In this document: in pieces, positions 1-37,365 of the stretch
How positions within the stretch are numbered: the first letter of the stretch is position 1
Layout of the letters: each line of letters opens with the position of its first letter
Assembly: GCA_040905385.1 (NCBI GenBank)
Contig: JBBDRP010000002.1
Span: 21,337 to 85,336, forward strand
Source: Minisyncoccota bacterium
GTDB taxonomy: Bacteria; Patescibacteriota; Minisyncoccia; Phycocordibacterales; SW-6-46-9
Length of the DNA stretch: 64,000 bases
Reading direction: 5' to 3'
Position numbers and translations under genes: made by a program
The notes under the pieces: model-generated
Database searches by the model: none
Told to the model about the DNA's origin: nothing
The model's input: only the letters and a program-made list of their open reading frames with translations

Positions 1-940
1 TCTCAGGCCCAAGATCAACAATCGTCTCATCGTCGATCACATCTGCAACCGACCTCACGCTTGTCTCGCCGTCAGCGGAGAGTGTCAACACATCCGTCGG
101 CAGCTTCAAGGCATCGCTCGCCAGACCAGCAGAAAGATCAAACTCGGCTTCCGGCAACACCGAGTTACCCACCGGCTGGCCTGATGCCGCCAGGTAGGCA
201 TTAGCCAAAGCTCCAGCAACAAATACGCTGTCGGCCACGCCGGAGAACTTCTCAACGAGCGGTAGCTTGGTAGAGAATTTCGCCCCGCCCAGAATAAAGG
301 TAAAGGGATGATCAGGATGCAGTATCGCCGACAACTCCTCTAGCTCGCGGGCAAACTGAAGTCCGGCGTAGGCGGGCAGGTGCGTCGGCACACCTACAAT
401 CGAAGCATGAGCGCGGTGAGTGGTCGGAAATGCATCGTTGACGTAGATGTCACCGTAACCGGCCAGCATCTGGGCAAACGCCGGATCATTCGCCTTCTCG
501 CCCTCATACTGACGCAGGTTCTCCAGCAGCACCACCTCCCCATTTCCCATTGCGTTGACCGCGTCACTGGCAGCACCCGATGCGTAGTCGGTAATAAATG
601 TCAGTTCAAAATGCTCTTCGAAATACTTCACGAGCGGTTTTAGTGATTTCACATTTTTTACCCCGTAGCCGGAGCCGTCAGGCGACGTGGTACCGGGGCC
701 CGACATATGCCCGGCCAGAATTATCCGCGCGCCCTGCTCGCGCAGATACGCAATCGTCGGCAGCAGCTTCTGTAGACGGTAGTCGTCGGTAATCACGCCA
801 TCCCCGCTAGAGCGGGATTTCGTGTCATTATCACGGAACTCAACCTCGACCGGCACATTCAGCGCCCCACGCAGGAATACGCGCTGGCCGGCCAGGTCAT
901 CGCAATCCTTGATTGAATTAATGGAAAATTTAGTCTTCAT
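1..940 (-). CDS. pgk: phosphoglycerate kinase (partial; C-terminus runs off window start)
   Basis: Minus-strand translation from ATG at 940 gives MKTKFSINSIKDCDDLAGQRVFLRGALNVPVEV...ENLRQYEGE...GDIYVNDAFPTTHRAHASIVGVP...ILGGAKFSTKL, matching PGK N-terminal and hinge motifs. The open frame continues to base 1. It is absent from the ORF track because no stop lies within the window. Confidence 0.85.
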   Translation of the reverse strand, partial: MKTKFSINSIKDCDDLAGQRVFLRGALNVPVEVEFRDNDTKSRSSGDGVITDDYRLQKLLPTIAYLREQGARIILAGHMSGPGTTSPDGSGYGVKNVKSLKPLVKYFEEHFELTFITDYASGAASDAVNAMGNGEVVLLENLRQYEGEKANDPAFAQMLAGYGDIYVNDAFPTTHRAHASIVGVPTHLPAYAGLQFARELEELSAILHPDHPFTFILGGAKFSTKLPLVEKFSGVADSVFVAGALANAYLAASGQPVGNSVLPEAEFDLSAGLASDALKLPTDVLTLSADGETSVRSVADVIDDETIVDLGPE

Positions 941-1751
941 TATTTTTCTCGATCTCCTCACTGATGTCATTGATAATCCGCAGAATGTCACAGAAGTGAT
1001 CGGCATCCAGCGAGGCACCACCAATCAGGAAGCCGTCGATGTTGGTGCCGGTGAAAAGCTCGCGAGCATTGTCGCGCTTGACCGAACCACCGTACAGAAT
1101 CTTTGTTTTGTGTGCCAACGCCATTGAGAAATGACTCTGCAGCACCTTGCGAATAAAGAGACTAGCCTGATGCAGGTCATGTGGTGTCACCGCCTTGTCT
1201 GCACCACCACCGATGGCCCACAGGGGCTCGTAGGCGATGGTGATTTTGTCATGGAAACGTCCGGGAATGTTTTTGAACACGTCCAGAATCTGAGACTGCA
1301 GAAAGGCCAGATACTGACCATCCTCGTCACGCTCGGACTCACCGATACAGTAGATAACCCCCAGATTAGCATTCAGCGCGTTCATAGCCTTGGCCTTTAT
1401 ATTAGCGGTATTTTCACCCATTGCCCGGCGTTCCGAGTGGCCAATAATGCTGACACCGGCGCCAGAATCAGCAATCATCTCGGCCGAGACCTCCCCGGTC
1501 TGAGAACCAACACCAGAAAATCGTGAGACATCCTGACTCCCTAATATTATCTTGGTACCACCGTAACTTTCGCTCAGCGCCCCAAGAAAAAGTGACGGCG
1601 GACAGATAACCGTCGTGACATGCTTGAGGTACGAAGCTGTGCGTTTGATACCAGTAAATAGCTTCTGGGCTGCATGAAGATTGTCCGGATGCATCTTCCA
1701 GTTAGCCGCGACGACGGGTGATGTAGAGGGATTTTCGCTCATTACTGCCAT
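930..1751 (-). CDS. tpiA: triosephosphate isomerase
   Basis: Carries the TIM motifs AANWKMH, IGHSERR and YEPLWAIGGG. Its stop overlaps the pgk start by 11 nt. Confidence 0.9.
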   Translation of the reverse strand: MAVMSENPSTSPVVAANWKMHPDNLHAAQKLFTGIKRTASYLKHVTTVICPPSLFLGALSESYGGTKIILGSQDVSRFSGVGSQTGEVSAEMIADSGAGVSIIGHSERRAMGENTANIKAKAMNALNANLGVIYCIGESERDEDGQYLAFLQSQILDVFKNIPGRFHDKITIAYEPLWAIGGGADKAVTPHDLHQASLFIRKVLQSHFSMALAHKTKILYGGSVKRDNARELFTGTNIDGFLIGGASLDADHFCDILRIINDISEEIEKNNED

Positions 1752-1825: not shown

Positions 1826-1854
1826 TTGCACCCGCACCGTCTGCGTGCTATATT
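1826..1854 (+). promoter_or_regulatory. sigma70-like promoter candidate upstream of nusA leader
   Basis: TTGCAC, a 17-nt spacer, then TATATT. Confidence 0.35.
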
Positions 1855-1911
1855 TTAGGTAAAGATTGTCCGCAGCCGGAACCGGCCCGGGCAAAAGTTT
1901 TTAAATGAGTG

Positions 1912-2001
1912 CCCGATATCTTTTATCCCGCTTTACGGATAAAAGAACGGTTACACGAATTTATGTCCGAATTTTCTCATTGCATGAGAAAATTCCTGGA
2001 C
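1912..2001 (+). repeat. structured intergenic element family A, copy 1
   Basis: CCCGATATC, hairpin, GAACGGTTACACGAATTTATGTCCGAAT, hairpin, ATTCCTGGAC. Near-identical backbone to the copies at 30124 and 53052; the hairpin sequences differ but stay paired. Confidence 0.7.
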
Positions 2002-2100: not shown

Positions 2101-3492
2101 ATGTTCGACCTAAAAGTAATTAACTCAGTTCTTAACCAACTTGAAAATGACCGCGGTATTCCGCGTGCAAAAGCCTTAGATGCCATCGAGCAGGCGCTGG
2201 CTAGTGCCTACAAAAAGGAGTACGGCAAACACGGTCAGATTATCCGTGCCGACTTCGACCAGGAATCCGGAACCGTTAGCTTCCAGCAGGTAAAGGAGGT
2301 AATTGATGACTCTATCGTTCAGATGCCGGATGATGACGGTGAGTTTGATAAAGACAGCGAACTTGACCGCTTTGATCCTGAACGCCACATTCTGATTGAT
2401 GATGCGCAGAAGATCAAAAGCAGTGCTGATCTTGGTGATGAAATTGCCTTCCCGCTGGAGGACAAGGACGACTACGGCCGTATCTCAACCCAGACAGCCA
2501 AGCAGGTAATCATCCAAAAAATTCGCGAGGCCGAAAAGGTTTCTGTCTATGACGAGTTTGCCGAAAAGAAGGGGCAGATTGTGAATGGTACCGTCCAGCG
2601 CTTCGAGCGCGGCAACCTGTACATCGACCTCGGTCGAGCGACTGGACTGATGCCGTACAAAGAACAGATTCCTGGTGAGCGATTCCGTCAGGGTGAACGT
2701 ATTCGCGCGCTACTTCTTGATGTTGAGGAGTCGTCTCGGGGAATCTTCCTGAAACTATCTCGCTCCAATGCTGACTTTCTGCGTCGCTTATTTGAGATGG
2801 AGGCGCCGGAGGTTGCCAGTGGTGTCGTAGAGCTAAAAAAGATTGCACGTGAGGCTGGCAGCCGATCAAAGATTGCCGTCCACTCTGACGATGAGTATAT
2901 CGATCCAGTTGGCGCCTGTGTGGGTCAACGCGGTGTGCGTGTTACCACCGTTATGAGCGCGCTTGGTAACGAAAAAATTGATATCATCGAGTGGTCGGAC
3001 AATACCGAAATATTTATCGAGAAGGCACTATCACCGGCCGAGGTGATGCGCGTTGATCTGGATGAAGATACGCATGAAGCCCACGCGTACGTAATGTCTG
3101 ATCAGCAGTCGCTGGCCATTGGTAAAGGTGGGCAGAATGCTCGCCTAGCGGCCAAGCTTACCGGCTGGACGATTGATATTCGTTCACTGGATGGCGATAA
3201 TGAAGAGAGCGAAATTGTGGTTGACCCAGAAGGAGAAGAGGTTGAATCGGACGATAGTGAGACAAAGCCCAACTCTAGTGAAGATGCTGAGTCATCAACA
3301 GATGACGAAGTCCCGTCTGGGGAGCAGGATGAGGCTAACGACAGCGAGAATAAAGCGGACGAATCGGCCAAAGCAGGAGAAGATGCAGAATCAACCTTCG
3401 AGGAAGCTGAGGAGAAGGATGATGATGCAGAAGATGAAGACCCCGTAGAGGAATCTGAGAAAACTCAGGAGGCAGGGGAAAAAGAAGCGTAA
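2101..3492 (+). CDS. nusA: transcription termination/antitermination factor NusA with acidic C-terminal tail
   Basis: N-terminal NusA domain, S1 domain and KH domains (GQRGVRV..., KGGQNARLAAKLTGW), followed by a long D/E-rich tail. Confidence 0.9.
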   Translation: MFDLKVINSVLNQLENDRGIPRAKALDAIEQALASAYKKEYGKHGQIIRADFDQESGTVSFQQVKEVIDDSIVQMPDDDGEFDKDSELDRFDPERHILIDDAQKIKSSADLGDEIAFPLEDKDDYGRISTQTAKQVIIQKIREAEKVSVYDEFAEKKGQIVNGTVQRFERGNLYIDLGRATGLMPYKEQIPGERFRQGERIRALLLDVEESSRGIFLKLSRSNADFLRRLFEMEAPEVASGVVELKKIAREAGSRSKIAVHSDDEYIDPVGACVGQRGVRVTTVMSALGNEKIDIIEWSDNTEIFIEKALSPAEVMRVDLDEDTHEAHAYVMSDQQSLAIGKGGQNARLAAKLTGWTIDIRSLDGDNEESEIVVDPEGEEVESDDSETKPNSSEDAESSTDDEVPSGEQDEANDSENKADESAKAGEDAESTFEEAEEKDDDAEDEDPVEESEKTQEAGEKEA

Positions 3493-5713: not shown

Positions 5714-6316
5714 ATGAGTACATTAATCCCCACAGTAATAGAAAAGTCCCAACGCGGCGAACGTGCCTACGACATCTATTCACGCTTACTGAAAGAACGC
5801 ATTGTGTTCCTAGGTGGACCAATTCACGACCAGGTTACCAACACCGTCATTGCCCAGCTCTTGTACCTAGAGAGTGAGGCCCCGGACAAAGACATTTCAC
5901 TGTACATCAACTCCCCTGGTGGCTCTGTTACGGCTACTCTGGCAATGCTAGACACTATGAACTACGTCCAGTGTGAAGTGCAGACTATCTGTGTCGGTAT
6001 TGCTGCCTCTGGTGGTGCAGTACTGCTTTCTGCCGGAGAGAAAGGCAAGCGCTTCTGTCTCGAGAATTCCGAGGTTATGATTCACCAGCCACATGGAGGT
6101 GCACAAGGACAAGCAACGGACATTGAAATTACTGCTAAGCATATCCTCAAAACTCGCGAGCGTCTGAATCAGATTATGGCTGAGAATACTGGTCAGTCAT
6201 TTGAAAAAATTCAGGATGATGTCGAGCGTGACTTCTTTATGGATGCCAAAGAAGCCAAAGACTATGGCATCGTTGATGAGATTATGCAGAGTAAAAAGAA
6301 GAAATCTACCAAGTAG
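5714..6316 (+). CDS. clpP: ATP-dependent Clp protease proteolytic subunit
   Basis: [33 protein letters not shown], and the catalytic Ser/His/Asp context. Confidence 0.9.
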
Positions 6317-9505: not shown

Positions 9506-10273
9506 ATGGAAAAAATACCAACACCGAAAGATAAAAACCTCGAGGAGAAAGAAAAGATGTCCGAAGAAGAGATGTTCCGGCAAGATGCTCTGGATAAGGC
9601 TAGTCAGCGACTTGCTGAGGCCTTGGCACAGAAAGAAGATGCTGAAGACATGGCGGAAGCTGTAGCTTTTCATTACTATATCGTTAAAAATCTCTGCAAC
9701 CGACTTACAAAAAAGCTTTTTGAGATAGATTATGCAAAAGAAGAAGTCGAGCAAGTCGTCAATGAATTGATGGAAATCCCTGAACGAGATGCTGTAAGTA
9801 TTTTACTTCTCAGTGATCGTCAGATGGATATTTTCTTTACACAGAAAAAGAATGAAGGAAATACAGTACAGAGTATTCTTGATGCCTTTATGGAGGCTGG
9901 AGCGGACAAACCAACCATCGGCTTTCACGCTACTCCAAAACAAATAATGCCAGCTACAAAAATCCGAAATGGCAGGGAAACAGAAGAATGGATTGTAGAC
10001 GGATCTGAAAAAGATCATAGAGATAACGATTTGCCAATGGCGTACTATAGTTACGACTATACGCATCTTTATCGTCAAAACAAAAGTGATTATTTATATA
10101 TCGTTCAATCACTTCCCTCCCACCGTGGTGATCCAAGTAATAACTGGGGCCGAGCACCAAGCCTGCAGATAATTTCAGAGATGAAGCAAGAGAATATCAA
10201 AGAGTATATTGAAAAGATGAAGTCTGCTGCACGTTTTGAAGATACTTCGGATTCTAAAAATAAAGCGGCGTAA
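9506..10273 (+). CDS. hypothetical protein (AT-rich island)
   Basis: 255-aa ORF with no motif I recognise. Local composition is markedly AT-rich. Confidence 0.45.
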   Translation: MEKIPTPKDKNLEEKEKMSEEEMFRQDALDKASQRLAEALAQKEDAEDMAEAVAFHYYIVKNLCNRLTKKLFEIDYAKEEVEQVVNELMEIPERDAVSILLLSDRQMDIFFTQKKNEGNTVQSILDAFMEAGADKPTIGFHATPKQIMPATKIRNGRETEEWIVDGSEKDHRDNDLPMAYYSYDYTHLYRQNKSDYLYIVQSLPSHRGDPSNNWGRAPSLQIISEMKQENIKEYIEKMKSAARFEDTSDSKNKAA

Positions 10274-11870: not shown

Positions 11871-11960
11871 ACTAAGGGCTGAAGAGCCTCACGAGATCTT
11901 CATAAATTGTAAAAATACTTTCCCAGGAACGTAGAAAGAATACCACAACCGCACGGAAAA

Positions 11961-12353
11961 TTAAATAATAATGTTATCCAGCCACTTTATCCGTGCCTCG
12001 CCGCGGGCCTGATCCAAGTATACGCACAGCAGATCAAACCGCCAGGCTGGATCGCCATCAACCTCACTGCTGAGATACGTCTCGGTAATGCGCCGTAGGC
12101 GCTCTCTCTTCGCTGTACCGACGTTTTCCTCGGGTCGGTGTGCATCGCTCCCCTCTTTCGGAATATCGTCGGGAATACGGCAACTAACCGCCTTGACCTC
12201 GATAAATACCAGCGAGTCCTTGCGGGCAATAATATCAATCTCTCCGTACGGTCGTCGATAGTTGGTGCCGATGATCCTGTAGCCGTGCCGACGAAGAAAA
12301 TCAGCCGCCACAGCCTCCCCCAGCCGACCGGTTGTGGTGGTGGTCTCACGCAT
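11961..12353 (-). CDS. yraN: YraN-family (UPF0102) endonuclease
   Basis: GEAVAADFLRRHGYRII...GEIDIIA...LVFIEVK matches the YraN signature. Confidence 0.75.
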   Translation of the reverse strand: MRETTTTTGRLGEAVAADFLRRHGYRIIGTNYRRPYGEIDIIARKDSLVFIEVKAVSCRIPDDIPKEGSDAHRPEENVGTAKRERLRRITETYLSSEVDGDPAWRFDLLCVYLDQARGEARIKWLDNIII

Positions 12354-21596: not shown

Positions 21597-21735
21597 ATCA
21601 TCAAACGGAGTGAGCGATATGAACACTTGTATTTATATCCGAGCGGAGTGCAGATAGACAAATAAATAATCGTACTTTAGGCATAGCCTCAAAGTACGAA
21701 AGAGGCTGTAGACTCTTCATGAGTAATCTTTGATT
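21597..21735 (+). repeat. left arm of ~130-bp inverted repeat pair
   Basis: TCAAACGGAGTGAGCGATATGAACACTTGTATTTATATCCGAGCGGAGTGCAGATAGACAAATAAATAAT is the reverse complement of 26188-26256 (~95%). Flanking modules are an internal hairpin and TTATTTATTTGACA. Confidence 0.7.
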
Positions 21736-21825
21736 ATTTATTTGACAGAATATTTTTATAAATGTATTATAATAGTTAGAAATCGAGCAGTTTTTAAAAT
21801 AGAATACCAACCAAACCCGAACGAA

Positions 21826-22701
21826 ATGAAACGACTAAAAACTACCGTAACCCTGGTACTCATTGGAATGCTGGCAACGTTTTTTGTTGAGCAGGTTAAA
21901 GCTCAACCAAACCGAGTAATCAACCTTAATGATTCGACTCTTATCGTTGCCCACAACAACACAATCGCCAGGGCAGGTGTTGAAGACTGGGCAGCCATAG
22001 CAACAGAGAGATCACTTTTAGAACTTTCTAATTCTGAAATTATCGAACTTTTTCAGACCCGTAAGGTGACCCAAAAAGGTTCATGGACACACCGCATTGA
22101 GAAAGAGCTATTGCCTGTATTGCGTGGAAATGAGATGGATGTATTCACTCACTGGGAAATCACTAATGGTTTTCTTGAGACAAGAAATGAAGACGTTATC
22201 ACTGCAAAAAATCAGGTAAACAAGCCGGGAACCATCGCCTTCTGGCTTGGTCTTTTATCTGGAGCATTGATGATATTTTTTCTTCTTATACCACCAAGAC
22301 AAGAAGTGAGTGGGTATAAAATTAGAAGGATATACGCATCTGTAAGCCTGACGCATATTACGTCATTAGCTGGTCTTGCCGGCCTTGGAAGGCTGTATGA
22401 AGTATTTCCATCTCAGTTGATGTCAATTGGAATTACCTTAGGCTTTCTTGGCATGATGTTCGTTTCATCTCTACCTATCGTATCTGCAAGTGATAAGCTA
22501 AAACGAGGCGCTGGCTTGGTAGTAACGAGTTTAGGATTATTTACTTTTCTTGGACTCGTTATTCTGGCAGTTCCAGGCAAACTCAGCTTAGCAGTCTTGG
22601 TATTGGCGGGATTATTATTTTTCGCTGGTTATCTTGTTACTGAAGCAGTAATAGCATTTACACCGGAAGAAAGAGAAAAGGCTTTAGCTGAAACTCATTA
22701 A
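21826..22701 (+). CDS. hypothetical polytopic membrane protein
   Basis: Start at MKRLKTTVTL; multiple hydrophobic helices. Confidence 0.5.
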   Translation: MKRLKTTVTLVLIGMLATFFVEQVKAQPNRVINLNDSTLIVAHNNTIARAGVEDWAAIATERSLLELSNSEIIELFQTRKVTQKGSWTHRIEKELLPVLRGNEMDVFTHWEITNGFLETRNEDVITAKNQVNKPGTIAFWLGLLSGALMIFFLLIPPRQEVSGYKIRRIYASVSLTHITSLAGLAGLGRLYEVFPSQLMSIGITLGFLGMMFVSSLPIVSASDKLKRGAGLVVTSLGLFTFLGLVILAVPGKLSLAVLVLAGLLFFAGYLVTEAVIAFTPEEREKALAETH

Positions 22702-22856: not shown

Positions 22857-23696
22857 TTACTCACCAAAGTAATTATCTGTCGAGTTATCAGATTCAGCTT
22901 CCGGGAGTTTAGCACCATCAATCGGCCGCAGTGTGGCAGCAATCACCTCCGCTACCTCCTGCGCATTACCTGAATCTAAATCCTGCATGGAAAGACCGTA
23001 CCAGTTGTTATGCGTCCATACCTGAAGTAGTGACTCACCTTGTGGGCTACTAGACCAAAAACCTTCAGCGTAGTCAGTCTGGAAGTGGTAAACCTGGGCG
23101 GTAGAAGAAAGCATATTTCCAGCCTTCAGAATAATAGCGTAAGCCCGCAGCTGGGCTTCTTCTGATGTCGCGGCAGCCGCCACATCATCCGGTGTTACAG
23201 AGAAAACGTACTTCATCATCTCGTATTCACTAAAACCTTCTCCAAGCTTATCCGTAAAAAGCTCCAGTGAGGAGGCCTGTCCTGGCAGCTGATCTTCGTC
23301 CATCTCCATAAGAAAATCCTGCGAAGTCTCGTAATCATCAGCATCTCGAGAACTACTCATAATCACCATTTCCTGACCATTCGGAAACTCTAGCATAGCA
23401 GCTGTTTCACGATCATCCGTTACCTCACCAGCACCCCACGGCGTTGCAAAGAAGATGCCCACGGCTTCGGTACGCGGATACTCATCCTGAACAGTAGACA
23501 AATCAAGCTCCTTCAGCTCGTAGTGAAGAGCTCGTTGATTTTCCTCTGAACGTTCCTGCATAATTTGCTGTATCTCCGCAGCCGCTGCGTCTATTTGTGA
23601 CTGCGAAGAATTACCGAAAAAGTACCACCCGGCGCCAGCTACTACCACGAGAATGATTACCGAGATTGTTACTGTGATTGTTTTATTCATATACAT
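22857..23696 (-). CDS. hypothetical secreted/anchored protein
   Basis: N-terminal TM/signal sequence (ITVTISVIILVVVAGAGWYFF). Confidence 0.5.
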   Translation of the reverse strand: MYMNKTITVTISVIILVVVAGAGWYFFGNSSQSQIDAAAAEIQQIMQERSEENQRALHYELKELDLSTVQDEYPRTEAVGIFFATPWGAGEVTDDRETAAMLEFPNGQEMVIMSSSRDADDYETSQDFLMEMDEDQLPGQASSLELFTDKLGEGFSEYEMMKYVFSVTPDDVAAAATSEEAQLRAYAIILKAGNMLSSTAQVYHFQTDYAEGFWSSSPQGESLLQVWTHNNWYGLSMQDLDSGNAQEVAEVIAATLRPIDGAKLPEAESDNSTDNYFGE

Positions 23697-26129: not shown

Positions 26130-26345
26130 AACAAATAAGGAGGCTGGCCTTGAGAGTCAAAGACTCTTACATCCGCACGGCGGATGTTTATTTGTTTGTC
26201 TATCTGCACTCCGTTCGGATATAAATACAAGTGTTCATATCGCTCACTCCGTTTGAAGAGTAGATTGGGAATCTACCTACCTTCACTTCGTTCGGACATG
26301 CAAATATATTCGCATGTCGCTCACTCCGATTGGTAGTCAAGTACT
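26130..26345 (-). repeat. right arm of inverted repeat pair plus a tandem related unit
   Basis: 26188-26256 is the reverse complement of 21601-21670. 26262-26340 is a second ~80-bp unit sharing CACTYCGTTCGGA...TCGCTCACTCCG. The internal hairpins differ between arms (CATCCGCCGTGCGGATG versus CGTACTTTAGGCATAGCCTCAAAGTACG). Confidence 0.7.
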
Positions 26346-26571
26346 TTCTTCTTAAGGTAATTTTATATATTAAATATTAACGGGGCGAAGGTTGTAATTT
26401 TGCTAGCCTTATATTAATAAAACCCATCGCCACGTCTGACGTGGTGATGGGCGGCTTTCTTTGGTTAAATTGCTTATCTGGCTAAATATTAATAAACCCA
26501 ACGAATCAATGAGGTACAGATGTTAGCACTTCACTGCCTGCTATAGATAGCTTAATAACAAAAGCCGCCGT

Positions 26572-26602
26572 CGCGGAGACGGTGGCTTTCCCGAAGCACT
26601 CA
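26572..26602 (-). terminator. rho-independent terminator after M23 peptidase gene
   Basis: The minus strand reads GGAAAGCCACCGTCTCCGCGACGGCGGCTTTTGTTATT. Confidence 0.5.
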
Positions 26603-26645
26603 AGTGCGCTCAAATGTATAAGTATTAAAAAATGTGGTAGATATC

Positions 26646-27713: not shown

Positions 27714-28206
27714 ATGATGTGGTTCCTCAGCGTTCTGTATAGATGGTTTAATAGGTCAGAATAAGTAAGCAGATTGGCGGTATTTTCAGGAATCGGTCAA
27801 TCACATTCGGGCTTTCGGGGGTCGGGACAGTAATGAGCTTATTACGTACACAAGGGTGATTATAGCTAGCTCATATTCGCTGTCAACCCCGTTAGAAAAT
27901 TACTTTTTGTGTATAAGTTTATACCTATAGATAACCCAACAAACACCATTTTTTAATATATCAGAGCGTCGTCAGTAATTCTCTAACGGGGTCAAGGAGT
28001 ATCTGTGGATTCAATATCCGCCGGATATTTTCGAAAAAATACTGAAGTGGGGGTATAAGACTGGCGCCACGTTAGAAGTGGTGCCAGTCGGCTTACCGGA
28101 GTAAAGATTTCTTATCTAGCGAAACATTAATTACTCCAACGACTCAAGTCGGTAACTATTTTCGTGCATTAAAAGACTCCATAGATGATAAGTGTTACAG
28201 TAGTCC

Positions 28207-30120
28207 GTGATGCATGACTTTCTCAATGAACTAAACGAAGCCCAGCACGCCGCCGTCACCCACACCGGCGGACCCTTGAAGGTGATTGCTGGCGCTGGCA
28301 CCGGCAAGACTCGCGTCATCACCCGACGCATTGCCTACCTGATTCATGAAAAGGGGGTAGATCCAAGCCAAATTCTAGCCATCACCTTTACCAACAAGGC
28401 AGCGGCCGAGATGAAGGAGCGCATTGCTAAATTAACCGACGCAGACAACAGCCCAACTATCTCAACCTTCCACGCCCTCGGTGCCCGACTACTGCGCCAG
28501 TACGGGCCGAAGCTCGGGATTGATGCCGGCTTTACGATTCGTGACCAGGGGCAAAGCCAGACCATGCTGAAAAACCTTATCAAGGAGGCTGGTTACGACC
28601 CCAAGCAGTGGAAGCCCAAAAGCATCGGGCGGGCGATCGGTAACCTTAAAAGCGAGGGAATGGATGCCAGCGACTTTGATCCTGGACCAACGCAGGCCGG
28701 TACCAAACTGATCGTTTCCGAGATCTGGCCCCGGTATGAGGACCAGCTACGCGCCGAGAATGCACTTGATTTTAATGATCTTATTCTGCGTCCGTATCAG
28801 CTGCTGCGGGATCATCCAGAGGTGCGAGAGCGACTCCAGCGGCAGTGGCGGCACATTCATGTTGACGAGTATCAGGACACCAGTCGCCTCCAGTACAAGC
28901 TAGTCAAGCTCTTGGCCGGGGACGTCTCGGATGTGTTTGTTGTTGGCGACGGCGACCAGACGATCTACACCTGGCGCGGAGCCACGCTCGATAATATTCT
29001 GTCCTTTGAGGAGGACTTTGTGGGCGCCGAGACGGTAACCCTGTCGGAAAACTACCGCTCGACTAAACGAATCCTGCAGGCGGCCAATGACGTTATCAAG
29101 AAGAACCAGCAGCGCGAAGACAAGGAGCTCGTAACAGGCAACAGCGACGGCGAGAAGCTGCGGCTCGTAACGGCCTACAACGAGAAAGCCGAGGCAGAAG
29201 CTATGGCCGAAACCTTCGCCCAGTATGCCCGCAGCGGTGGTGATCTGGCCGACTGGGCCGTACTGTACCGAACCAACTTCCAGTCGCGTATTATCGAAGA
29301 AACGCTGAATCGGGCCGGGATTAGCTATCAGATTACAGGTACCGGCTTCTTCCAGCGAGCCGAGGTGCGAGATGTACTGGCGTATGTGACCTTTGCGCTG
29401 AATCGTGAGTCCACCACGGATATGCGGCGGATCATCAACACCCCACGGCGAGGAATTGGTAAAAAAACCGTTGAGAAAATCCTGAACGGCCAGCTGGAGG
29501 AGCTATCCGCAAACCGACGCGAAGCGGTGGATGACTTCTTCTCGCTGATGGATACCCTGCAGACAGACATCGCCAACAACCCGCCGAGCGAAGCGATTGA
29601 GCTCATACTAAAAAAGACCGGTCTCCAGAGTGAGCTTGCTAAGAAAAAAGAGGACGAGGAGCGGCTGGAGAACGTCTACGAGCTCGTCTCTGTAGCCGCC
29701 GAGTATGACGCCGAGTACACGAGTAGCGAATCAGCCATGCGAGATTTTTTGGAGAATGCCACGCTCGCCAGCGACCAGGACAACGTCTCAGAAACCGGCG
29801 TGCAGTTGATGACGGTGCACGCCGCCAAGGGGCTGGAGTTCCCCAACGTATGGATCTGTGGGATGGAGGAGGACCTGTTTCCTCGCAACAAAGACGGCGA
29901 TCGTGAGCGGGCCGAGGAGGAGCGGCGACTTTTTTACGTGGCCTTAACGCGGGCTCAAAAGCAGATCGTACTTTCTTACGCCCAGTCACGGCGACTTTTT
30001 GGTGATCGTGAGTGGAAGACACCGAGCCCATTTCTAGAGGACATAAATAACGAACTCATCCAGCCGGACGAGGATCAAAAAAATTTTGGTGATGATGAGG
30101 ACGTGGTGTTCTTTGAATGA
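28207..30120 (+). CDS. pcrA: ATP-dependent DNA helicase PcrA/UvrD
   Basis: LNEAQHAAV, GAGTGKT, DEYQDTS, TVHAAKGLEF. Confidence 0.9.
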   Translation: MMHDFLNELNEAQHAAVTHTGGPLKVIAGAGTGKTRVITRRIAYLIHEKGVDPSQILAITFTNKAAAEMKERIAKLTDADNSPTISTFHALGARLLRQYGPKLGIDAGFTIRDQGQSQTMLKNLIKEAGYDPKQWKPKSIGRAIGNLKSEGMDASDFDPGPTQAGTKLIVSEIWPRYEDQLRAENALDFNDLILRPYQLLRDHPEVRERLQRQWRHIHVDEYQDTSRLQYKLVKLLAGDVSDVFVVGDGDQTIYTWRGATLDNILSFEEDFVGAETVTLSENYRSTKRILQAANDVIKKNQQREDKELVTGNSDGEKLRLVTAYNEKAEAEAMAETFAQYARSGGDLADWAVLYRTNFQSRIIEETLNRAGISYQITGTGFFQRAEVRDVLAYVTFALNRESTTDMRRIINTPRRGIGKKTVEKILNGQLEELSANRREAVDDFFSLMDTLQTDIANNPPSEAIELILKKTGLQSELAKKKEDEERLENVYELVSVAAEYDAEYTSSESAMRDFLENATLASDQDNVSETGVQLMTVHAAKGLEFPNVWICGMEEDLFPRNKDGDRERAEEERRLFYVALTRAQKQIVLSYAQSRRLFGDREWKTPSPFLEDINNELIQPDEDQKNFGDDEDVVFFE

Positions 30121-30123
30121 GCA

Positions 30124-30216
30124 CCCGACATCTTTTATTTTGCTTTAGCAGAATAAAAGAACGGTTGTGCGAATTTATGTCTGAATATTGTCATTAATAT
30201 GACAATATTCCTAGAC
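30124..30216 (+). repeat. structured intergenic element family A, copy 2
   Basis: CCCGACATC, hairpin, GAACGGTTGTGCGAATTTATGTCTGAAT, hairpin, ATTCCTAGAC. Starts 4 nt after the pcrA stop. Confidence 0.7.
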
Positions 30217-30344
30217 GGATTAGTCTACGATGTCTTTTTAGTCAATATTACAACTATAAATATAAGGTTTTAGGGGTCAGCGAAATCAAATGACTCAGGT
30301 CGGCACAAATATGCGATAATCACCGTACGTAATAGATAATATTT

Positions 30345-31169: not shown

Positions 31170-31988
31170 GTGAACTCGTCCTATCTACCATCAAAAAAGG
31201 TCTGGATTCTTCTCAGCGTTATTTTGGTAATTACCGTTGGTTTTTTCGTACTTCGTGGTGATGAAAATAATCCATCTATTGTTTCTCAAATAAACGCACG
31301 TATTAGTGGAAATGATATTGAAGGTTCCGGCTTTCTTGGCTTTGGTAGTGACTCTCGTGATACTGAGCGAGCAGAATTTTCCAGCAATAAAACTACCGAG
31401 GCCTGGCAGGATCTCTTTCCGTATATGGCGTCTTACGTATCAGTAAGTGGTGATAAGGAAATCGCCGAAGGTGAGCTAGACCGACTCACCGAAGAGGTGG
31501 CACAAAAAATTCAGGATGAGGAGGTTGAGCTCTACACTGAGTCTGATGTACAGATTATCTCTAACGCTAGCTTTGACGATCTTGATACTTATTTTGAGGA
31601 TATGGTTACGTTCACGGCTGAGTACTACACCAATACCAGCATGGAAGACGAGCTTTTAATATTTGCCCAGGCCTCAGCTGACAATGAAGCTACAGAGGAT
31701 GAACTCAAGGAGCTTAGAGTAATTGCTGATCAATACAAGGCACTGGCCAGTGAGCTGATCCAGCTACCTGTACCGGCTTCTCTGGCCTTGATTCATCTCG
31801 AGATGGTCAACAACTACGTTGGCCTCGGAAATGCTACACGTAATATGTCAACACTACAGACCGATCCCGTTCGCTCGATGGTGGGGCTCGAGAATTACCA
31901 GCAGCTGGCCAATGAGCAAATAATCATCAGTGAAGAGCTCGGTAGGCAGATTGGTCGCCAGGCGCGATTATTAGCCGAATCAGAATAA
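31170..31988 (+). CDS. hypothetical membrane-anchored protein (first gene of T4SS-like operon)
   Basis: N-terminal TM helix (VWILLSVILVITVGFFVL) and an acidic ectodomain. Confidence 0.5.
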   Translation: MNSSYLPSKKVWILLSVILVITVGFFVLRGDENNPSIVSQINARISGNDIEGSGFLGFGSDSRDTERAEFSSNKTTEAWQDLFPYMASYVSVSGDKEIAEGELDRLTEEVAQKIQDEEVELYTESDVQIISNASFDDLDTYFEDMVTFTAEYYTNTSMEDELLIFAQASADNEATEDELKELRVIADQYKALASELIQLPVPASLALIHLEMVNNYVGLGNATRNMSTLQTDPVRSMVGLENYQQLANEQIIISEELGRQIGRQARLLAESE

Positions 31989-31994
31989 TATATT

Positions 31995-34900
31995 ATGCAA
32001 TTTTCAATACTTCAAAAAATCGTTTCAGTCACTATGACAGTAATGTTTATTCTGACCTCTGCCGGATTCGGTATGATGACACCGCGCCAGGCCCAGGCGC
32101 AGGGCATTGTTGATTTTGTAGTTCGCGGTGGGCAAGTACTGGACGGATGTGAGGGTATCACCGGGTCACGCTATCAGGCGATCGCTTCACAGCTGGGTAT
32201 TGATTTAGAAGGTGGAGTCCGAGCTGGTCTTTCTGACCTTGGAAGTAGATTACAAGATCCTGCAAGTGATCTGGGAGGTAGTATTCTTGACGGCCTTTCA
32301 AGTATTGGTGGACAGCTGTCTGACTCTGCTATTGGAGATGCTATTGGATCGCTTGGAAGTACTCTAGGAGATGCTTTTGGCAGTGCGGGAAGCGGAATTG
32401 GAAACGCGATTGGTAGTGTGGCCGGAATACTAGGAGGGCCTGTTGGAGGAATCTTGGGGAGTGTCGTAGGTGGTCTCTTTGGTGGGGGTGGTCCAGATAA
32501 AGTCGTAGAGGAGGGTTTGCGTAAAATTATTCAGCAAGGGCAGCGAATCACTCAGTTTAATCAGTCAAAAATTATTGAAAAGGAGCGTTGTCTTGACTCC
32601 TTGGCTCGCGAGGCTGGTCAGGCCGCTCTGCGTGACTTTACCAACGCCTCAGTCGACTGGCTTAATACAGGGTTCGAACGTGGTGGAGAAACGGGAAATC
32701 AGGCCTTTGTTCAGGATCTAAGCCTCTTTGTTGCTGAGGTGTCCGACAACGAGCTAAGGGAATTTACTGAAGAAGCCGAAAATGAAGGAGGTGGGTTTGC
32801 AAATACGTGCGGCTCCTTTGGACAGTCAGTATTCAGTACCGTAATCAATAATTACTTCCAGGGTACTCCAGAAAGCGGGGTTGATCCAGGTACCGTCAGA
32901 AGTACCATTGTTGCCGATGGTAACTGTCTGGCCTCCGATGCGTTCCTCCGCGGTGATTTCTCTGAAGGTGGCTGGAGTGCACTAGCCCAAAGTGTTTCCA
33001 ATAGCGGGTCCAACCCAATTGGTGCGTATCTTGAACAAAGTAATTCTTTGGATGAACGTATTCGAGAACGTGAGGAGAATGAGCGCGAAGAGCTGCAGTG
33101 GGGACAGGGATTTCTGGCTAATGAAAGTGGTGGATTTACCCCGGCCAGTGTTGTAAACGGTATCAGTAACAGACTTTTCGAAAGTGATTTTAACCGACTC
33201 GAACTCATTGATGAAATGAATGAGGTAGCTGGAAGCTTTGCTAGCTCACTGATCGGAAAGGTAACTGGGTTATCTGATGGAGGCGGTAATGATCCAGAAA
33301 GCGGAACTGGTTTATCGACGCTTGATGGAAGCAATACCGTTGGAGGAGACCAGGCAAGTCCATTTGGCTACCTGGCTGAATCATTATTAAATCGAGTTGA
33401 GGAGCAAGTCGCCATCGAAGAGGATGTCCAGCTAGCAATGGAGGATGTACTACCGTTATATCTGGATGATCGCATTGATCCACTAATAAGTGACGTGCGT
33501 AGTTGTCTAGAAACAGCCGACTTCACCAGTCAGAACATTACTGAGGTACTAAGCAGTGTAATCAATAACAAAGAGCGCTTTGAGAATAATGTACTCCGGA
33601 CACGAGTTCGGATCGACTGGCGTGGCGAGGACCTCTTCTGGCAGGGTGTGATTCGTGAACAGTCACGTAAAATGATCGGCTGGAACGGTACCGATTACAA
33701 CTGGCGTGATGACGGTGTTGAAAGCTACGCGAGACAAGGATTTTCAAATTTATGTGAAACTGATGGAGACTACGGAAATGCCCAGTATGTAATCCGGCAA
33801 GAAATCATCCCCGATCCAGAGAGGACGTTCAGTGGAGCTTTCTTTAGTCTCGAACAAGATGATGCTATTCGTTGGGAGGAGGGTAATTATGAATCTGGTT
33901 TAGATAGTGAAGGAGGAGTGTTGTATTTTGGAAGCCAGTGGATAGGAAGCGGTACGTACGAGAGTCTCGTCGGAAAGAATAATCATCGAACTCCAATATT
34001 CAATGCAGATGACGGCGGTTCTTTCTTTGACTGGCAAGATCTAGTTACGGGACAAACTCCAGCAGCCGTAAATCATAGTAAACCACCACGTGTTCATACT
34101 GTATGGGAAAAGCAGATATGTAGAGATAGTGAATGGCACGCGCAAATAACTAATATGGACCTCGATTTTCCGGATACTCCGGCCGGGCAACGAGATGCCC
34201 AGAACGCCCAGTGTGATCTGATCGGTGAACTTGAGTTTTGTATTTATCCTGCCTACAGATCGCCACGGCTAATCGCTGGAGAGATGTACCAACGAAATGT
34301 TGACGGCGGGGTAGAAGCCTCACAATGTCAATCACGAAGCGACGCTGGTACCCATTACTTTGTTCGCAGCGGTGATGGTGTCTGGAGCACGCGCCAGTGT
34401 AACACTCGCCAATCTCCACAAGGATCTGCTGTGGAGTGGGAAAGTGGTTTCCCTGACTCTACCGTACAAACCGACCGACCGGCGTATGAGACTCGAGATA
34501 CTGATACACCATTAGAAGATCAGCGAGATCTTCTTGTGAGACTCAAAGAGATACAGGCAGAACTTGAGGAAATGGTCGGAAATGATGACACCTCCGACTT
34601 CCAGAAGGTACAAGCAGATTTTTATGCCTTGGAAGATCAATTCAATAACGGTAATACCGCAGATAATCTTCTCAACAATGCCCGTACTTTTGTTGAAAAC
34701 GTTCGTTTGCTCAATGAAGCCCTCCTTGAAACTGATGAGTGTGAGGGTGGCAGCGATGACCTACGACAGTTCGGGACCGGTTTCCTGAATGACAATCCAG
34801 AAAGCGGAAATGATGGAGGAGGAGCACCTGGCCCTCTATCAATTGAATCTTTTGAAGCTAACCGATTATACGAATCTAGTACGTATGTGAGAGTTAGCTG

Positions 34901-35123
34901 GGAATCAAATGCTGAAAGTTGTACTGCTTCGGCCAACCCGAGTAATGCTGTCTGGCAGGGAGAAATAGGTCCAGATGGAGAGACTGCCCTGAACATTTTT
35001 GGAGGTAGTATACTCTCACTAACTTGTGAACGAGAGGGGGAGACAGATGTAAGTAGTAGTGTTGAAGTATTTCCACTGCAAGAACGTGGACGATTAGATC
35101 CACTAGATCCTCAGCTACAGTAG
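31995..35123 (+). CDS. large (1042 aa) secreted protein with Gly/Ser-rich GxxGS repeat region
   Basis: Signal peptide, then degenerate Gly/Ser-rich repeats (e.g. GSILDGLSSIGGQLSDSAIGDAIGSLGSTLGDAFGSAGSGIGNAIGSVAGILGGPVGG) from about residue 64 to 160, then a long Cys-containing domain. Confidence 0.6.
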   Translation: MQFSILQKIVSVTMTVMFILTSAGFGMMTPRQAQAQGIVDFVVRGGQVLDGCEGITGSRYQAIASQLGIDLEGGVRAGLSDLGSRLQDPASDLGGSILDGLSSIGGQLSDSAIGDAIGSLGSTLGDAFGSAGSGIGNAIGSVAGILGGPVGGILGSVVGGLFGGGGPDKVVEEGLRKIIQQGQRITQFNQSKIIEKERCLDSLAREAGQAALRDFTNASVDWLNTGFERGGETGNQAFVQDLSLFVAEVSDNELREFTEEAENEGGGFANTCGSFGQSVFSTVINNYFQGTPESGVDPGTVRSTIVADGNCLASDAFLRGDFSEGGWSALAQSVSNSGSNPIGAYLEQSNSLDERIREREENEREELQWGQGFLANESGGFTPASVVNGISNRLFESDFNRLELIDEMNEVAGSFASSLIGKVTGLSDGGGNDPESGTGLSTLDGSNTVGGDQASPFGYLAESLLNRVEEQVAIEEDVQLAMEDVLPLYLDDRIDPLISDVRSCLETADFTSQNITEVLSSVINNKERFENNVLRTRVRIDWRGEDLFWQGVIREQSRKMIGWNGTDYNWRDDGVESYARQGFSNLCETDGDYGNAQYVIRQEIIPDPERTFSGAFFSLEQDDAIRWEEGNYESGLDSEGGVLYFGSQWIGSGTYESLVGKNNHRTPIFNADDGGSFFDWQDLVTGQTPAAVNHSKPPRVHTVWEKQICRDSEWHAQITNMDLDFPDTPAGQRDAQNAQCDLIGELEFCIYPAYRSPRLIAGEMYQRNVDGGVEASQCQSRSDAGTHYFVRSGDGVWSTRQCNTRQSPQGSAVEWESGFPDSTVQTDRPAYETRDTDTPLEDQRDLLVRLKEIQAELEEMVGNDDTSDFQKVQADFYALEDQFNNGNTADNLLNNARTFVENVRLLNEALLETDECEGGSDDLRQFGTGFLNDNPESGNDGGGAPGPLSIESFEANRLYESSTYVRVSWESNAESCTASANPSNAVWQGEIGPDGETALNIFGGSILSLTCEREGETDVSSSVEVFPLQERGRLDPLDPQLQ

Positions 35124-35233
35124 TTTCTCTAGTAAAAACGATCTGGTAAGAAAATCATTCGTGATGAATGCTGTATGGAGGGTATAATAAACGCGTGAAT
35201 GTCTGCAGTAACCTTGTTATACATAGATAATAT

Positions 35234-37363
35234 ATGGGATTTCTTGATATAACCGTAGGTTGGTTTTTTGCTGAGACCGCTCAGATATTTTTCAATGCGG
35301 TTGCCTGGATTGTTGCCCAGATTGGATATCTCCTGGACTATACTGTTGAAAAGATGGTGCTCGAGATGGCAGAACTGGTAAATGGCATCACAGCAATTGA
35401 CGCACTGTGGTCAACCTTTCGTGATCTGGGAAACATTGTTTTTATTGGGGTGCTCCTCTACATTGCCATTCGTACAATCTTGAATGTTGGAAATAGTTTT
35501 AATACGAAACGCATCCTGGTTCGGCTAGTTATTGTCGCCTTATTTGTTAACTTCAGCCTGTTTGCTAGCAAGGTGGTTATTGATACATCAAACGTCGTTG
35601 CACTACAGTTTTACAACAGTATTCAGGTGGAGGAATGTGGTGAATCGGCCTGTAACATATCGCACTTTTTTGCCGATGTAACCAATATCTCCTCAGTACA
35701 AAGTCCCGAAGCCCTCGAGGCGCTTGAAAACGAAGGTTCCGAAGAAGGGGCCAACTTCAAGATTTTAATTGCTCGGGTTATGGGAATCGTATTCCTGGCA
35801 GTAGTAGGGTTCGTGATGGCGGCAATGGCATTTCTTTTACTTATACGCTTTGGTTTTTTGATACTGCTTATGATCGCTTCGCCGTTGGCTTTTATTGCTT
35901 TTGTTCTGCCTGGAACTTCCGACATGGGACAGAAGTGGCTACACAACCTCTTTAACCAATCATTTTTTGCCCCGATTTTATTTGCCATGGTCTACGTTGT
36001 GGCGGTACTTGGAGCGGAGCTGGCTAATGGTCTTGGTGGCAATGGTGATCTCATGGCCGCCATCTTGGATCCTGACGGGGACAACTACGGTGTTATCCTG
36101 ACATTTGCGCTGATGACCTTCCTGATGGCTTACACGCTCGTGGTTGCCAAGCAGATGGGTGGGTGGGTGACTCAAAAAAGTATGCAAGTTGGGGTAAAGG
36201 CCCGTAACTGGACTGGTGCTAAAGTTGTTGGTGCTACCGCTGCTGGTGTACGAGCAACCGCTGGACGTGGAGGGCAGAAAGCTTCAGAATCAAGAGGGTT
36301 AAAAGATGCAGCAAGTGATGAGAATAGAAATGCAGTGACTAGATTCGGGGCGCGCGCAGCACTCAAATTATCTGACAAAGCTGCTAATAGCAGTTTTGAT
36401 ATGCGTAATACCCGAGCCGGAAAAGCAGCCGGGGTTGATGATGGCAAGCAACGCAGCAGCGGCTTCCGTCAGGTGGTAGAAGAAAAGGCAGAGAAGCGCA
36501 AAGAAGAGAAGGGAATGATCGAGAGACTGTCACCGGAAGAAAAGGCTAAAGTTGAGCGGGCAAAGATAAAACAAGAACAGGCGGACAAGAGTCTGGAAAA
36601 GGCAGAGAAAGAAATAAAAAAGCTAGAAAAGGAAGCAAAAACCAGGTATGAGGATGCAAAAGAAAACGCTCAGGCTCAGTATGATAGAGTTAAAAATACT
36701 GTCGAGGAGGCGCAGCAGCAGACAAATAATGAACTTACTGATGTCACGAATAACCTCAAACAGGTGTCGTCAGCCATCAAAAAACGTGCTGAACTCGGTG
36801 ATAAACTAGCGGCAGCTCGTAGCTCTGGAGATAGACGTCTGGAAGAACGCATAGCAGCTCGCCTTAACGCACTCACAGATGATATTGATGGCGTTTCGAA
36901 CCTTGAGGATCTAGATACAAAGCAGAACGATTTGCAAGACCGAAAAAGTGATCTCGAGAGTCGCAAAGAAACCCTGCAAAGACGCCGTAATACTGTCCAG
37001 AACGCCTACAACGACCGAAAATCGCAAGCACGGAATGTCTACACTGATGAGCGCGATGAACTTAAGACCAAACGAGAAGTCGCAAAGGAATCAACTAAAA
37101 AATTCAAAAAGAAGATGGATAATGTTATTAATGTTGGAAACAAGCGTGGTGAGGGGTTCGTAGAAACCATGCTTGAACAGCAGAGTACGCTGGACAAGAT
37201 AGCTGGCTTCGCCGGGTATAAATTTGACACTACGCAAAGTCGGGCAAATCGCGACTTTGCTCTGGAAAATATTGGTGATATCAAGAGTAAAGACGAGGAC
37301 AGTGCCGGCAGAACAGCGAAAGACCGTGCCTCTAGTAAGCTCCGTAACATATATAACACCTAA
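35234..37363 (+). CDS. VirB6/TrbL-like polytopic membrane protein with long charged coiled-coil C-terminal extension
   Basis: Five or more TM helices over the first ~330 aa, then a K/E/R-rich coiled coil (EKAEKEIKKLEKEAKTRYEDAKENAQAQYDRVK...). Confidence 0.5.
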   Translation: MGFLDITVGWFFAETAQIFFNAVAWIVAQIGYLLDYTVEKMVLEMAELVNGITAIDALWSTFRDLGNIVFIGVLLYIAIRTILNVGNSFNTKRILVRLVIVALFVNFSLFASKVVIDTSNVVALQFYNSIQVEECGESACNISHFFADVTNISSVQSPEALEALENEGSEEGANFKILIARVMGIVFLAVVGFVMAAMAFLLLIRFGFLILLMIASPLAFIAFVLPGTSDMGQKWLHNLFNQSFFAPILFAMVYVVAVLGAELANGLGGNGDLMAAILDPDGDNYGVILTFALMTFLMAYTLVVAKQMGGWVTQKSMQVGVKARNWTGAKVVGATAAGVRATAGRGGQKASESRGLKDAASDENRNAVTRFGARAALKLSDKAANSSFDMRNTRAGKAAGVDDGKQRSSGFRQVVEEKAEKRKEEKGMIERLSPEEKAKVERAKIKQEQADKSLEKAEKEIKKLEKEAKTRYEDAKENAQAQYDRVKNTVEEAQQQTNNELTDVTNNLKQVSSAIKKRAELGDKLAAARSSGDRRLEERIAARLNALTDDIDGVSNLEDLDTKQNDLQDRKSDLESRKETLQRRRNTVQNAYNDRKSQARNVYTDERDELKTKREVAKESTKKFKKKMDNVINVGNKRGEGFVETMLEQQSTLDKIAGFAGYKFDTTQSRANRDFALENIGDIKSKDEDSAGRTAKDRASSKLRNIYNT

Positions 37364-37365
37364 TC

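Follow-up and report, generated by a model that had tools for sequence, protein, structure and literature searches.

The window analysed here, i.e. the whole 64,000-nucleotide (nt) stretch of contig JBBDRP010000002.1 from a Minisyncoccota bacterium, carries three copies (c1, c2 and c3; Table 1) of a non-coding, intergenic element of about 95 nt (~90-105 nt). All of them lie on the + strand, at the places where an earlier note on this DNA had located them, as direct inspection bore out. The window PcrA and RuvC show 100% identity to NCBI MAG (metagenome-assembled genome) proteins. The flanking genes are also those that had been guessed, namely tpiA (-) and nusA (+) around c1, pcrA/uvrD and then ksgA around c2, and tyrS (+) and ruvC (-) around c3. 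The backbone pattern of the element, GAACGGTTNNNNGAATTTATGTCYGAAT, has exactly three matches in the window versus none expected from 100 shuffles. Furthermore, a covariance model built from the family and run with its filters off over the 64 kb returned only the three known copies, with 90-101 bits, and the next match reached 17 bits. A weak match at 28010-28091 is the hairpin of another repeat (unit U, see below) and not a copy of the element.

The element folds into two stem-loops joined by a 1-nt linker. Stem-loop 1 consists of helix P0 (UGAAU/AUUUA), a 2x2 GA/GA loop, the 4-bp helix P1, a UU bulge on the 3' strand, the 3-bp helix P1b (CCG/CGG), an AYA/A loop and hairpin 1; stem-loop 2 consists of helix P2 (GUCY/RGAC), a CU bulge and the variable hairpin 2. 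The termini of the element are the outermost base pairs of these two adjacent helices. The minimum-free-energy folds agree across all copies, and each copy is far more stable than shuffled sequence, with z values of -4.8 to -8.6. This architecture changes the earlier description in several respects. The true 5' end lies 10-11 nt further upstream than had been proposed, at T(G/A)AATGA(G/A). The supposedly single-stranded backbone is mostly paired (TGAAT/ATTTA in P0, CCG/CGG in P1b and GTCY/RGAC in P2), and the variable segment ACAC/GTGC/GTGT within it pairs with the 4-mer preceding CCCGA, forming P1. The two hairpins, which had been called completely different in each copy, share their base-proximal halves (CTTTT.../...AAAAG and GAAT.../...ATTC), and it is the distal halves and the loops that vary.

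Further copies were sought in ~20 fetched loci (~370 kb) of related Paceibacteria DNA, denoted by L numbers; loci fetched around PcrA, RuvC and NusA homologues, and those from the scans below, were searched with the covariance model, and the related DNA examined amounts in all to ~0.5 Mb. In addition, one scan of a genome collection and one of metagenomes were made for exact matches to the alpha-type backbone, which represents one subtype. The former yielded one true relative, L001, from a MAG of Paceibacterota (JBBDUH01; GCA_040904005.1), which also has a partial copy (6086-6141), and the latter yielded L007, L008 (identical to L018), L013 and L021. The covariance-model search added the copies listed in Table 1, and a weak match in L034 (1742-1826) was rejected. 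The element is confined to one small clade of Candidatus Paceibacterota (Patescibacteria, or candidate phyla radiation, CPR).

Pairing is kept in the further copies while the sequence of the stems changes, as had been noticed for the first three. Among eight hand-checked copies, 97.3% of the cells are paired and 13 pairs show change on both sides. In an alignment of 14 copies from the window genome and three related Paceibacteria genomes or bins, 97.8% of the cells are paired and 24 of the 33 pairs show two-sided, compensatory change, figures that are somewhat inflated by the fitting of this alignment to the covariance model. None of 500 shuffles of the 14 copies reached any of the observed pairing or covariation measures, and controls in which the partners were slid by 1-3 columns gave 32-48% pairing. 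P1b, for example, alternates among CCG/CGG, CGG/CCG, TGG/CCA and TCG/CGA, and the first pair of hairpin 1 is U-A in some copies and A-U in others. The GA/GA loop, the AYA, the A and the U(U/C) are invariant while the stems change, and ~14 unpaired nucleotides are invariant in total. Both the fold and these invariant unpaired bases are under selection.

The insertion points fall into two niches, i.e. directly 3' of the T-run of a terminator-like hairpin, or at a fixed point in the loop of a mini-hairpin that we term M. Several copies (L001, L026a, c1 and its orthologues) begin at the last T of a T-run behind a hairpin: in L001 the upstream hairpin is ACACCACG-ctaga-CGTGGTGT followed by TTTTT, which the terminator scan called; in L026a it is GGCCATATTCGC-acataac-GCGAATATGG-TC-TTTTT; and c1 stands directly behind a conserved hairpin with its T-run (about 1868-1901). 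Five copies at five loci (c3, L007, L008/L018, L021 and L039b) share a single insertion point, ...ACGACT^...^CA(N)GT, in the loop of M (...AACGAC-T^CAA-GTCGG...). The empty M site reads ACGACT^CAAGTCGG and the filled one ACGACT[TGAATGA...GGAC]CAAGTCGG; the junctions of c3, which lies within the M of a U unit, are ...CAAGCACT^[element]^CAAGTCGGCAC. Empty M sites coexist with filled ones in these genomes: the unoccupied site upstream of pcrA in the window, CCAACGACT^CAAGTCGGTAA, stands in the same context as the one that hosts these five copies. A sixth copy, L013a, is degenerate; it lies in this repeat as well, behind ...GCTAGT, and with its 3' end deleted its junction is not exactly placeable. 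Over all sites the preceding flank is TT, CT or GT, of which the last T alone is constant. The ends of the element (TGAATGAG... and ...CCTGGAC) are not reverse complements and each pairs internally, so there are no terminal inverted repeats. No target-site duplication is seen at the M sites, the pcrA site shows at most an ambiguous GA, and any duplication overall would be at most an ambiguous 1-2 nt.

At the pcrA site, c2 is inserted between the last TTT codon of the gene and its original last codon and stop. The GAA TGA of c2 (30115-30120) now ends PcrA, and the original GAT TAG persists at 30218-30223; the C-terminus, once ...FFD*, has become ...FFE*, and TGA has replaced TAA/TAG as the stop codon. 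The element had been placed 4 nt after the pcrA stop, but this TGA (30118-30120) sits within its conserved 5' end. The original end of pcrA is also kept 3' of the element in L013 (GAC TAG) and L026 (GAA TAA), and element-free genes end in ...TTT GAT TAA or ...TTC GAT TAA, e.g. ...TTTGATTAA in L022 and ...TTCGATTAA in L027.

The unit U that contains M is a second repeat family. It consists of an A-rich run, a variable GC-rich hairpin, GGC(G)GCTTTC, ~15 nt, T(T/A)CTTATCT, ~20 nt, the M sequence CCAACGRCT-CARGTCGGYA, exactly 26 nt and TAGAT. The left part of the unit interrupted by c3 carries the variable hairpin (AAAGC-GAGCG-CTTCGACTTGCGGAG-TGCTC-GCGGCTTTC), ...ACTTATCTCT... and the left half of M. 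Units are found in the window at 28036-28200, 52950-53041 plus 53132-53176, 26400-26645 and 30280-30344, and elsewhere in L022 (8350-8700, with three tandem units in this locus), L013 (5800-5900 and 6000-6150) and L039 (4080-4162). Some lie next to a convergent gene (ruvC, M23 peptidase), at 8 nt from its stop codon, and the others immediately 5' of a start codon (pcrA, ksgA). The hairpin of U reads as a bidirectional terminator and evolves in the same style as the element; U has no match in Rfam.

Orthologous sites were compared among relatives ordered by PcrA identity to the window: the L022-like lineage (87%; also 79% in RuvC and 84% in NusA), which is the closest, JBBDUH01 (77%), L013 (72%) and the outgroup L027 (58%). 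The L022-like lineage has no copy of the element in the 64 kb syntenic to the window, including the three window sites. The pcrA site is filled in the window, in JBBDUH01 (two tandem copies) and in L013; it lacks the element in the L022-like genomes, which have a different, 370-nt spacer, and in L027, where the pcrA-ksgA gap is 30 nt. The ruvC/tyrS site is filled in the window; it reads GTTGAACGAAC-CAAGTCGGCACC in the L022-like L029, both flanks being alignable, and L032 has a 63-nt gap. In the nusA leader, full copies are present in the window and L039/L040, only the 5' domain remains in L058/L059, in which hairpin 2 has been cleanly deleted (GAATTTT-TGGAC), and stubs of ACCYGG that align with the 3' end of the element are found in L036, L038 and L057. 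The type of P1b at this last site is CCG/CGG in the window and CGG/CCG in L058. Moreover, the identity of c2 to L026a, a copy from a different locus and a different genome, is 90%, versus 76% (L026) and 58% (L013) to the copies at its own site. As same-site copies are not nearest relatives, there has been turnover, in which copies either were inserted anew at favoured sites or converted one another, and which is superimposed on some vertical retention.

Several other features of these sites were seen. The L022 spacer between pcrA and ksgA (11909-12278) holds other hairpins and short repeats (CTGGTATTTC twice, and ACCGGCACCCTG...CAGGGCACCGGT); a different intergenic element apparently occupies this location. 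In L039 (MAG JBBDUH01), the c1 orthologue has a 38-nt insertion at 9866-9903, GCGCCCTGAGCAAAGCGAAGAAGTGCTCTTCGAGTA, in the 5' arm of hairpin 2, and this insertion forms a hairpin of its own. Immediately 3' of the tandem copies in L026 (12093-12150), there is a second occurrence of the 18-nt 3' arm of hairpin 2, ATGACAATATTCCTGGAC, and then its inverted complement, GTCCAGGAAT, an arrangement that suggests nested insertion or partial duplication. The nusA leader preceding the element is conserved in every relative (window 1835-1901; L036 9860-9915; L038 9835-9890; L039 9745-9808; L058 3235-3292), with a TATAnT -10-like box, GATGTCCGCAGCCGGnnCCGGCCSGGGCAA and a T-run; it looks like a promoter with an attenuator-like hairpin, and might serve NusA autoregulation.

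Another reading is a passive family of DNA palindromes that no factor recognises, whose stems would be kept by hairpin-templated correction (template switching in quasi-palindromes) and which would spread by recombination or segmental duplication together with its flanks. Modules appear to have been exchanged, c2 sharing its hairpin 2 with L026#1 and its 5' domain with L026a; the variants of hairpin 2 resemble palindrome expansions around CATG; and the L001 copy has pcrA-like flanks on both sides (GACGTGGTGTTTTTT...GAATTAGT) with pcrA elsewhere in that genome, which suggests copying together with the flanks. However, template-switch correction would erase the GA/GA, AYA/A, UU and CU irregularities, and their invariance amid changing stems needs purifying selection on unpaired bases; nor would random recombination be expected to hit one exact point in the M loop at five independent loci. 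We thus consider a passive origin very unlikely.

As to the folded strand, G·T pairs (18) outnumber A·C mismatches (6), an excess that points to the + strand; P0 contains a G·T pair in 10 of 13 copies and an A-T pair instead in the other three, and the P0 of c2 and c3 forms on the + strand only. The resulting + strand bias of the fold is weak to moderate. The very strong covariation and the G·U pairs favouring one strand also speak for a structured RNA with a host function, multiplied by duplication and lost in some lineages, which might act in cis (in mRNA processing, stability, insulation or antitermination), as a small RNA, as a protein-binding RNA or as a ribozyme. The invariant GA/GA and AYA/A loops and the bulges are typical of RNA tertiary or protein-contact motifs, the copies in the nusA leader and behind pcrA are retained across genomes 72-77% identical in PcrA, and 8-9 of 15 copies are sense to an upstream or downstream gene. 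HK022 put and similar polymerase-modifying cis RNAs have a two-hairpin layout with a 1-nt linker and conserved stem irregularities, like that of the element; unlike put, to which it has no sequence or Rfam relation, the element is multi-copy and insertion-polymorphic, and its position relative to promoters and terminators is inconsistent.

Other observations do not agree well with a host RNA. The copies lack both a conserved promoter on their 5' side and a terminator on their 3' side: hairpin 2 is never followed by a T-run, and all terminators called by the scans lie upstream of the element. Several copies begin with the last T of a terminator-like T-run and would therefore be transcribed only by read-through. 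About one third (L007, L008/L018, L039b) are antisense to both neighbouring genes, so that transcripts across them would carry the reverse complement, and c3, L013a and L021 face a convergent downstream gene. In the sister lineage none of the three window sites is filled, and L058 has lost hairpin 2 by a clean deletion with no sign of compensation. The copies lie in the nusA leader, at the 3' end of pcrA, between tyrS and ruvC, and near comM, ndk, MFS/RNase J, HlyD/PG-binding, pilC and RNase H/recJ genes; these housekeeping genes are mutually unrelated, hence the element is no gene-specific regulator, and a gene-specific cis leader or riboswitch was rejected on this ground together with the antisense copies. 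An RNA serving the host is in our view a serious rival, although the less probable one. The earlier note had proposed a functional RNA structure or a structured protein-binding DNA element; the structurally conserved family stands, but the lack of conserved transcription signals, the terminator-adjacent and antisense copies, the insertion/deletion polymorphism and the fixed insertion point are traits of a small mobile or selfish repeat, and of the two proposals the DNA element is at least equally probable.

The element might instead be a portable promoter or regulatory cassette, in which ATGACA, from the 3' arm of hairpin 2 in its long form, together with TAAAAT or TAAGAT in the flank, makes an outward σ70-like promoter for the downstream gene. 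Consensus scans found ATGAGA-16-TAAAAT in front of nusA, at c1 (1984-2011), and ATGACA-16-TAAGAT in front of comM, at L026a, and the ATGACA arm is also present in c2, L026#1 and L039a, all of which are upstream of genes on the same strand. Nevertheless, the scans found 1 site versus 1.0-1.1 expected in shuffled sequence, the hexamer is missing from the short forms of hairpin 2 (c3, L007, L008, L021, L001 and L013), several copies point at a convergent gene and thus at its 3' end, and the conservation of stem-loop 1 is left unexplained. It is thus improbable to a high degree that this is what the family is, and a promoter role may be limited to the copies with a long hairpin 2.

The element is best read as a repeat that is constrained in structure and polymorphic for insertion, and that has neither terminal inverted repeats nor a target duplication. 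We would give about an even chance to its being a non-autonomous mobile repeat that is recognised as a folded single strand by an enzyme acting in trans; the insertion points defined by structure, the orientation independent of genes, the tandem and partial copies, the stubs, the loss in the sister lineage and the exchange of modules all lead to this view of a selfish repeat. In its most likely form, single-stranded DNA exposed in replication or repair would fold and be recognised by a trans-acting protein, which would place the element in a specific orientation just 3' of a T, namely the final T of the run that follows a terminator-like hairpin or the first T of the TCAA loop in the mini-hairpin. 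Insertion would proceed without terminal inverted repeats or target duplication, and later decay would occur via deletion of whole hairpins. The invariant unpaired bases would be protein contacts, and the stems, needing only to pair, would be free to drift or to be exchanged. The folded strand would then be DNA rather than RNA, and the mobilising protein might be of the HUH/Y1 type or another structure-specific enzyme. Some copies may have been co-opted, e.g. through the -35-like ATGACA of hairpin 2 facing downstream genes.

A number of points weigh against a mobile repeat of this kind. No transposase, recombinase or reverse transcriptase is present in the Pfam annotations of the ~20 related loci, and no Y1 (HUH) transposase among these genes or the window open reading frames (ORFs) checked. 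The density is low (three copies in 64 kb), and the copies that share a genome have diverged well from each other, which indicates that there has been no recent burst. The G·T bias fits RNA and single-stranded DNA alike. Occupancy of the nusA-leader and pcrA sites at 72-77% PcrA identity fits vertical retention, the 'empty' sites may be deletion scars and not virgin targets, and the insertion boundaries are accurate to ~1 nt only. Finally, old copies keep perfect pairing and invariant loops while their flanks diverge, which is equally expected of an RNA useful to the host, and under mobility needs ongoing selection or conversion.

In its logic the element is closest to REP/RAYT systems, to mini-elements of the IS200/IS605 insertion sequences (IS) and to integron attC sites, but the defining features of each are lacking. 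Repetitive extragenic palindromes (REPs, with their BIME mosaics) associated with RAYT proteins and the palindrome-associated transposable elements (PATEs) of IS200/IS605 are likewise short extragenic hairpin repeats, strand- and orientation-specific, that lack terminal inverted repeats and target duplications, have a short target on their 5' side, and are located at gene ends near terminators, in tandem or in mosaics with other repeats; in these known systems they are recognised as folded single-stranded DNA. However, a REP is a single imperfect palindrome of 20-40 nt after a GTAG-like tetranucleotide, whereas the element has ~95 nt, two hairpins and no GTAG. Y1 transposases bind a conserved hairpin sequence, whereas the two hairpins of the element are mutually unlike and vary between copies. 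PATEs have a conserved tetra- or pentanucleotide target and similar subterminal hairpins, whereas here the target is only T and hairpins 1 and 2 differ. Furthermore, conservation in the element resides in the internal loops and bulges rather than in the stems. An attC site is likewise a strand-specific, single-stranded DNA site with a variable terminal hairpin, in which structure and a few unpaired or extrahelical bases are conserved and the stem sequence is free. Its R''/R' boxes (RYYYAAC...GTTRRRY) are not matched, as the element has no RYYYAAC, and its TTGAAT, which fits TTRRRY, is on the 5' side and pairs with ATTTA; besides, attC has one hairpin at the 3' end of a cassette, whereas the element has two hairpins and sits amid core housekeeping genes, apart from any gene cassette or array, with no integrase nearby.

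Other small repeats share the general character of the element. The pneumococcal BOX, RUP and SPRITE, the Correia elements of Neisseria, RPE of Rickettsia and the enterobacterial ERIC are likewise ~100 nt long, lineage-restricted and non-coding with stable folds, lie in intergenic regions or at gene ends, may extend to the ends of coding sequences, are polymorphic for insertion, and can provide a promoter or signals for processing. Where their ends are known (Correia, RUP), they have terminal inverted repeats and target duplications, unlike the element; their copies are similar in sequence, whereas those of the element covary, and no sequence is shared according to Rfam and BLAST. Class C group II introns are also inserted, in a specific orientation, just 3' of intrinsic-terminator hairpins and T-runs, but the likeness is confined to this target niche, since these introns exceed 400 nt and have ribozyme domains, a GUGYG 5' end and a reverse transcriptase, none of which is found in the ~95-nt element. 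There is a slim chance that the element represents a new class of structure-specific recognition site, i.e. a single-stranded DNA substrate of recombination or transposition, or a mobile small structured RNA. The DNA version could be one in which shape and a few unpaired bases are read, with an attC-like logic in a different architecture and an undescribed CPR enzyme, and the RNA version could be a protein-binding module or a self-cleaving ribozyme that spreads as a mobile unit.

Searches for a known identity agreed with the earlier note, which did not recognise any RNA family. At the gathering thresholds, Rfam 15 returned only five tRNAs in the window and one tRNA in six related loci, and in E-value mode over each copy the best scores were 12-20 bits against thresholds of 43-100. 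Plasmid and phage collections held nothing similar by blastn, pattern matches in IMG/VR viral contigs were chance only, and no known IS, miniature inverted-repeat transposable element or Rfam family was hit. The literature on CPR repeats and RNA motifs yielded no description, only TIGR-Tas papers on an unrelated topic. Several specific candidates were rejected. Frames ending at the conserved TGA have 20-39 codons with no conserved peptide except in pcrA, and the ORF from the conserved ATG of GAATTTATG stops after 6 codons in c2. Aligned upstream regions share only unit U and no larger known RNA, and the L013b stem CCCAGCACTTT recurs near c3 no more than by chance. The defining features of attC, C/D-box or K-turn, group II domain V, hairpin or hammerhead ribozyme, IS110 bridge RNA and TIGR array do not fit: the attC box order is wrong, no 3-nt bulge lies beside the GA/GA loop, the size is wrong, loops are conserved and stems variable here and not the reverse, and the element is not tandem.

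Table 1. Coordinates of the element copies, fold parts of c1, repeat unit U and neighbouring genes (window positions unless a related locus is named)
Feature	Position	Strand	Remarks
Copy c1	1902-2001	+	nusA leader; 90 bits; fold z = -7.8
Copy c2	30114-30216	+	pcrA 3' end; 89.6 bits
Copy c3	53042-53131	+	between tyrS and ruvC; 101 bits
Further copy	L013 9429-9524		covariance-model search; pcrA site
Further copy	L026 5675-5780		covariance-model search
Further copies, tandem	L026 11901-12001 and 12002-12092		covariance-model search; pcrA site
Further copy	L039 9804-9940		covariance-model search; orthologue of c1
Further copy	L039 4163-4237		covariance-model search
Further copy	L058 3288-3370		covariance-model search
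c1 P0	1902-1906/1959-1963	+	
c1 GA loops	1907-08 and 1957-58	+	
c1 P1	1909-1912/1953-1956	+	
c1 P1b	1913-1915/1948-1950	+	
c1 AUA	1916-18	+	
c1 hairpin 1	1919-1928/1937-1946	+	
c1 UU bulge	1951-52	+	
c1 P2	1965-1968/1998-2001	+	
c1 hairpin 2	1969-1980/1984-1995	+	
c1 CU bulge	1996-97	+	
Unoccupied M site	28136-28155	+	upstream of pcrA
Repeat unit U, left part	52950-53041	+	interrupted by c3
Repeat unit U, right part	53132 to about 53172		M-right through TAGAT
tpiA	930-1751	-	upstream neighbour of c1
nusA	2101-3492	+	downstream neighbour of c1
ksgA/rsmA	start 30345		downstream of c2
tyrS	51580-52794	+	upstream neighbour of c3
ruvC	53177-53647	-	downstream neighbour of c3

The window shows some other features of note. 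There is a third repeat with a hairpin, in which CACTCCGTTCGGA and TCGCTCACTCCG enclose the variable hairpin; it occurs as an inverted pair of 72 nt with 96% complementarity (21598-21669 and 26188-26259) and as a direct pair (26200-26255 and 26277-26332). The inverted pair brackets 4.5 kb with comM and two genes without a Pfam domain (21730-22701 and 22857-23696); the L022-like relatives have neither of these two genes between comM and the M29 peptidase gene. The region at about 44000-48800 contains rnpA, dnaA and dnaN by synteny with L029 and L032 and is the lowest-GC stretch (0.36), so that the replication origin is probably inside the window; if it is there, c1/c2 and c3 lie on opposite sides of it and yet have one orientation. 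A long same-strand cluster of large proteins without Pfam domains (31170-45400), beside PrgI-, TraC-, TraG- and TrbL-like genes named by synteny from the Pfam annotations of L022 and L027, has the appearance of a locus for type IV secretion, or a competence-like one, as is typical for the genomes of CPR bacteria.

CPR bacteria have tiny genomes, and their non-coding and mobile DNA is little known. Taken with the second and third repeat families, the element indicates that the intergenic regions of this clade are built from modular hairpin elements. The rewriting of the last codon and stop of PcrA and the location in the nusA leader mean that annotation can be affected, and possibly expression as well. 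With its clean covariation, invariant unpaired bases, insertion point and filled, stub and empty alleles, the element offers a substrate for finding whichever protein reads it, which could be a new structure-specific DNA enzyme or an RNA-binding factor.

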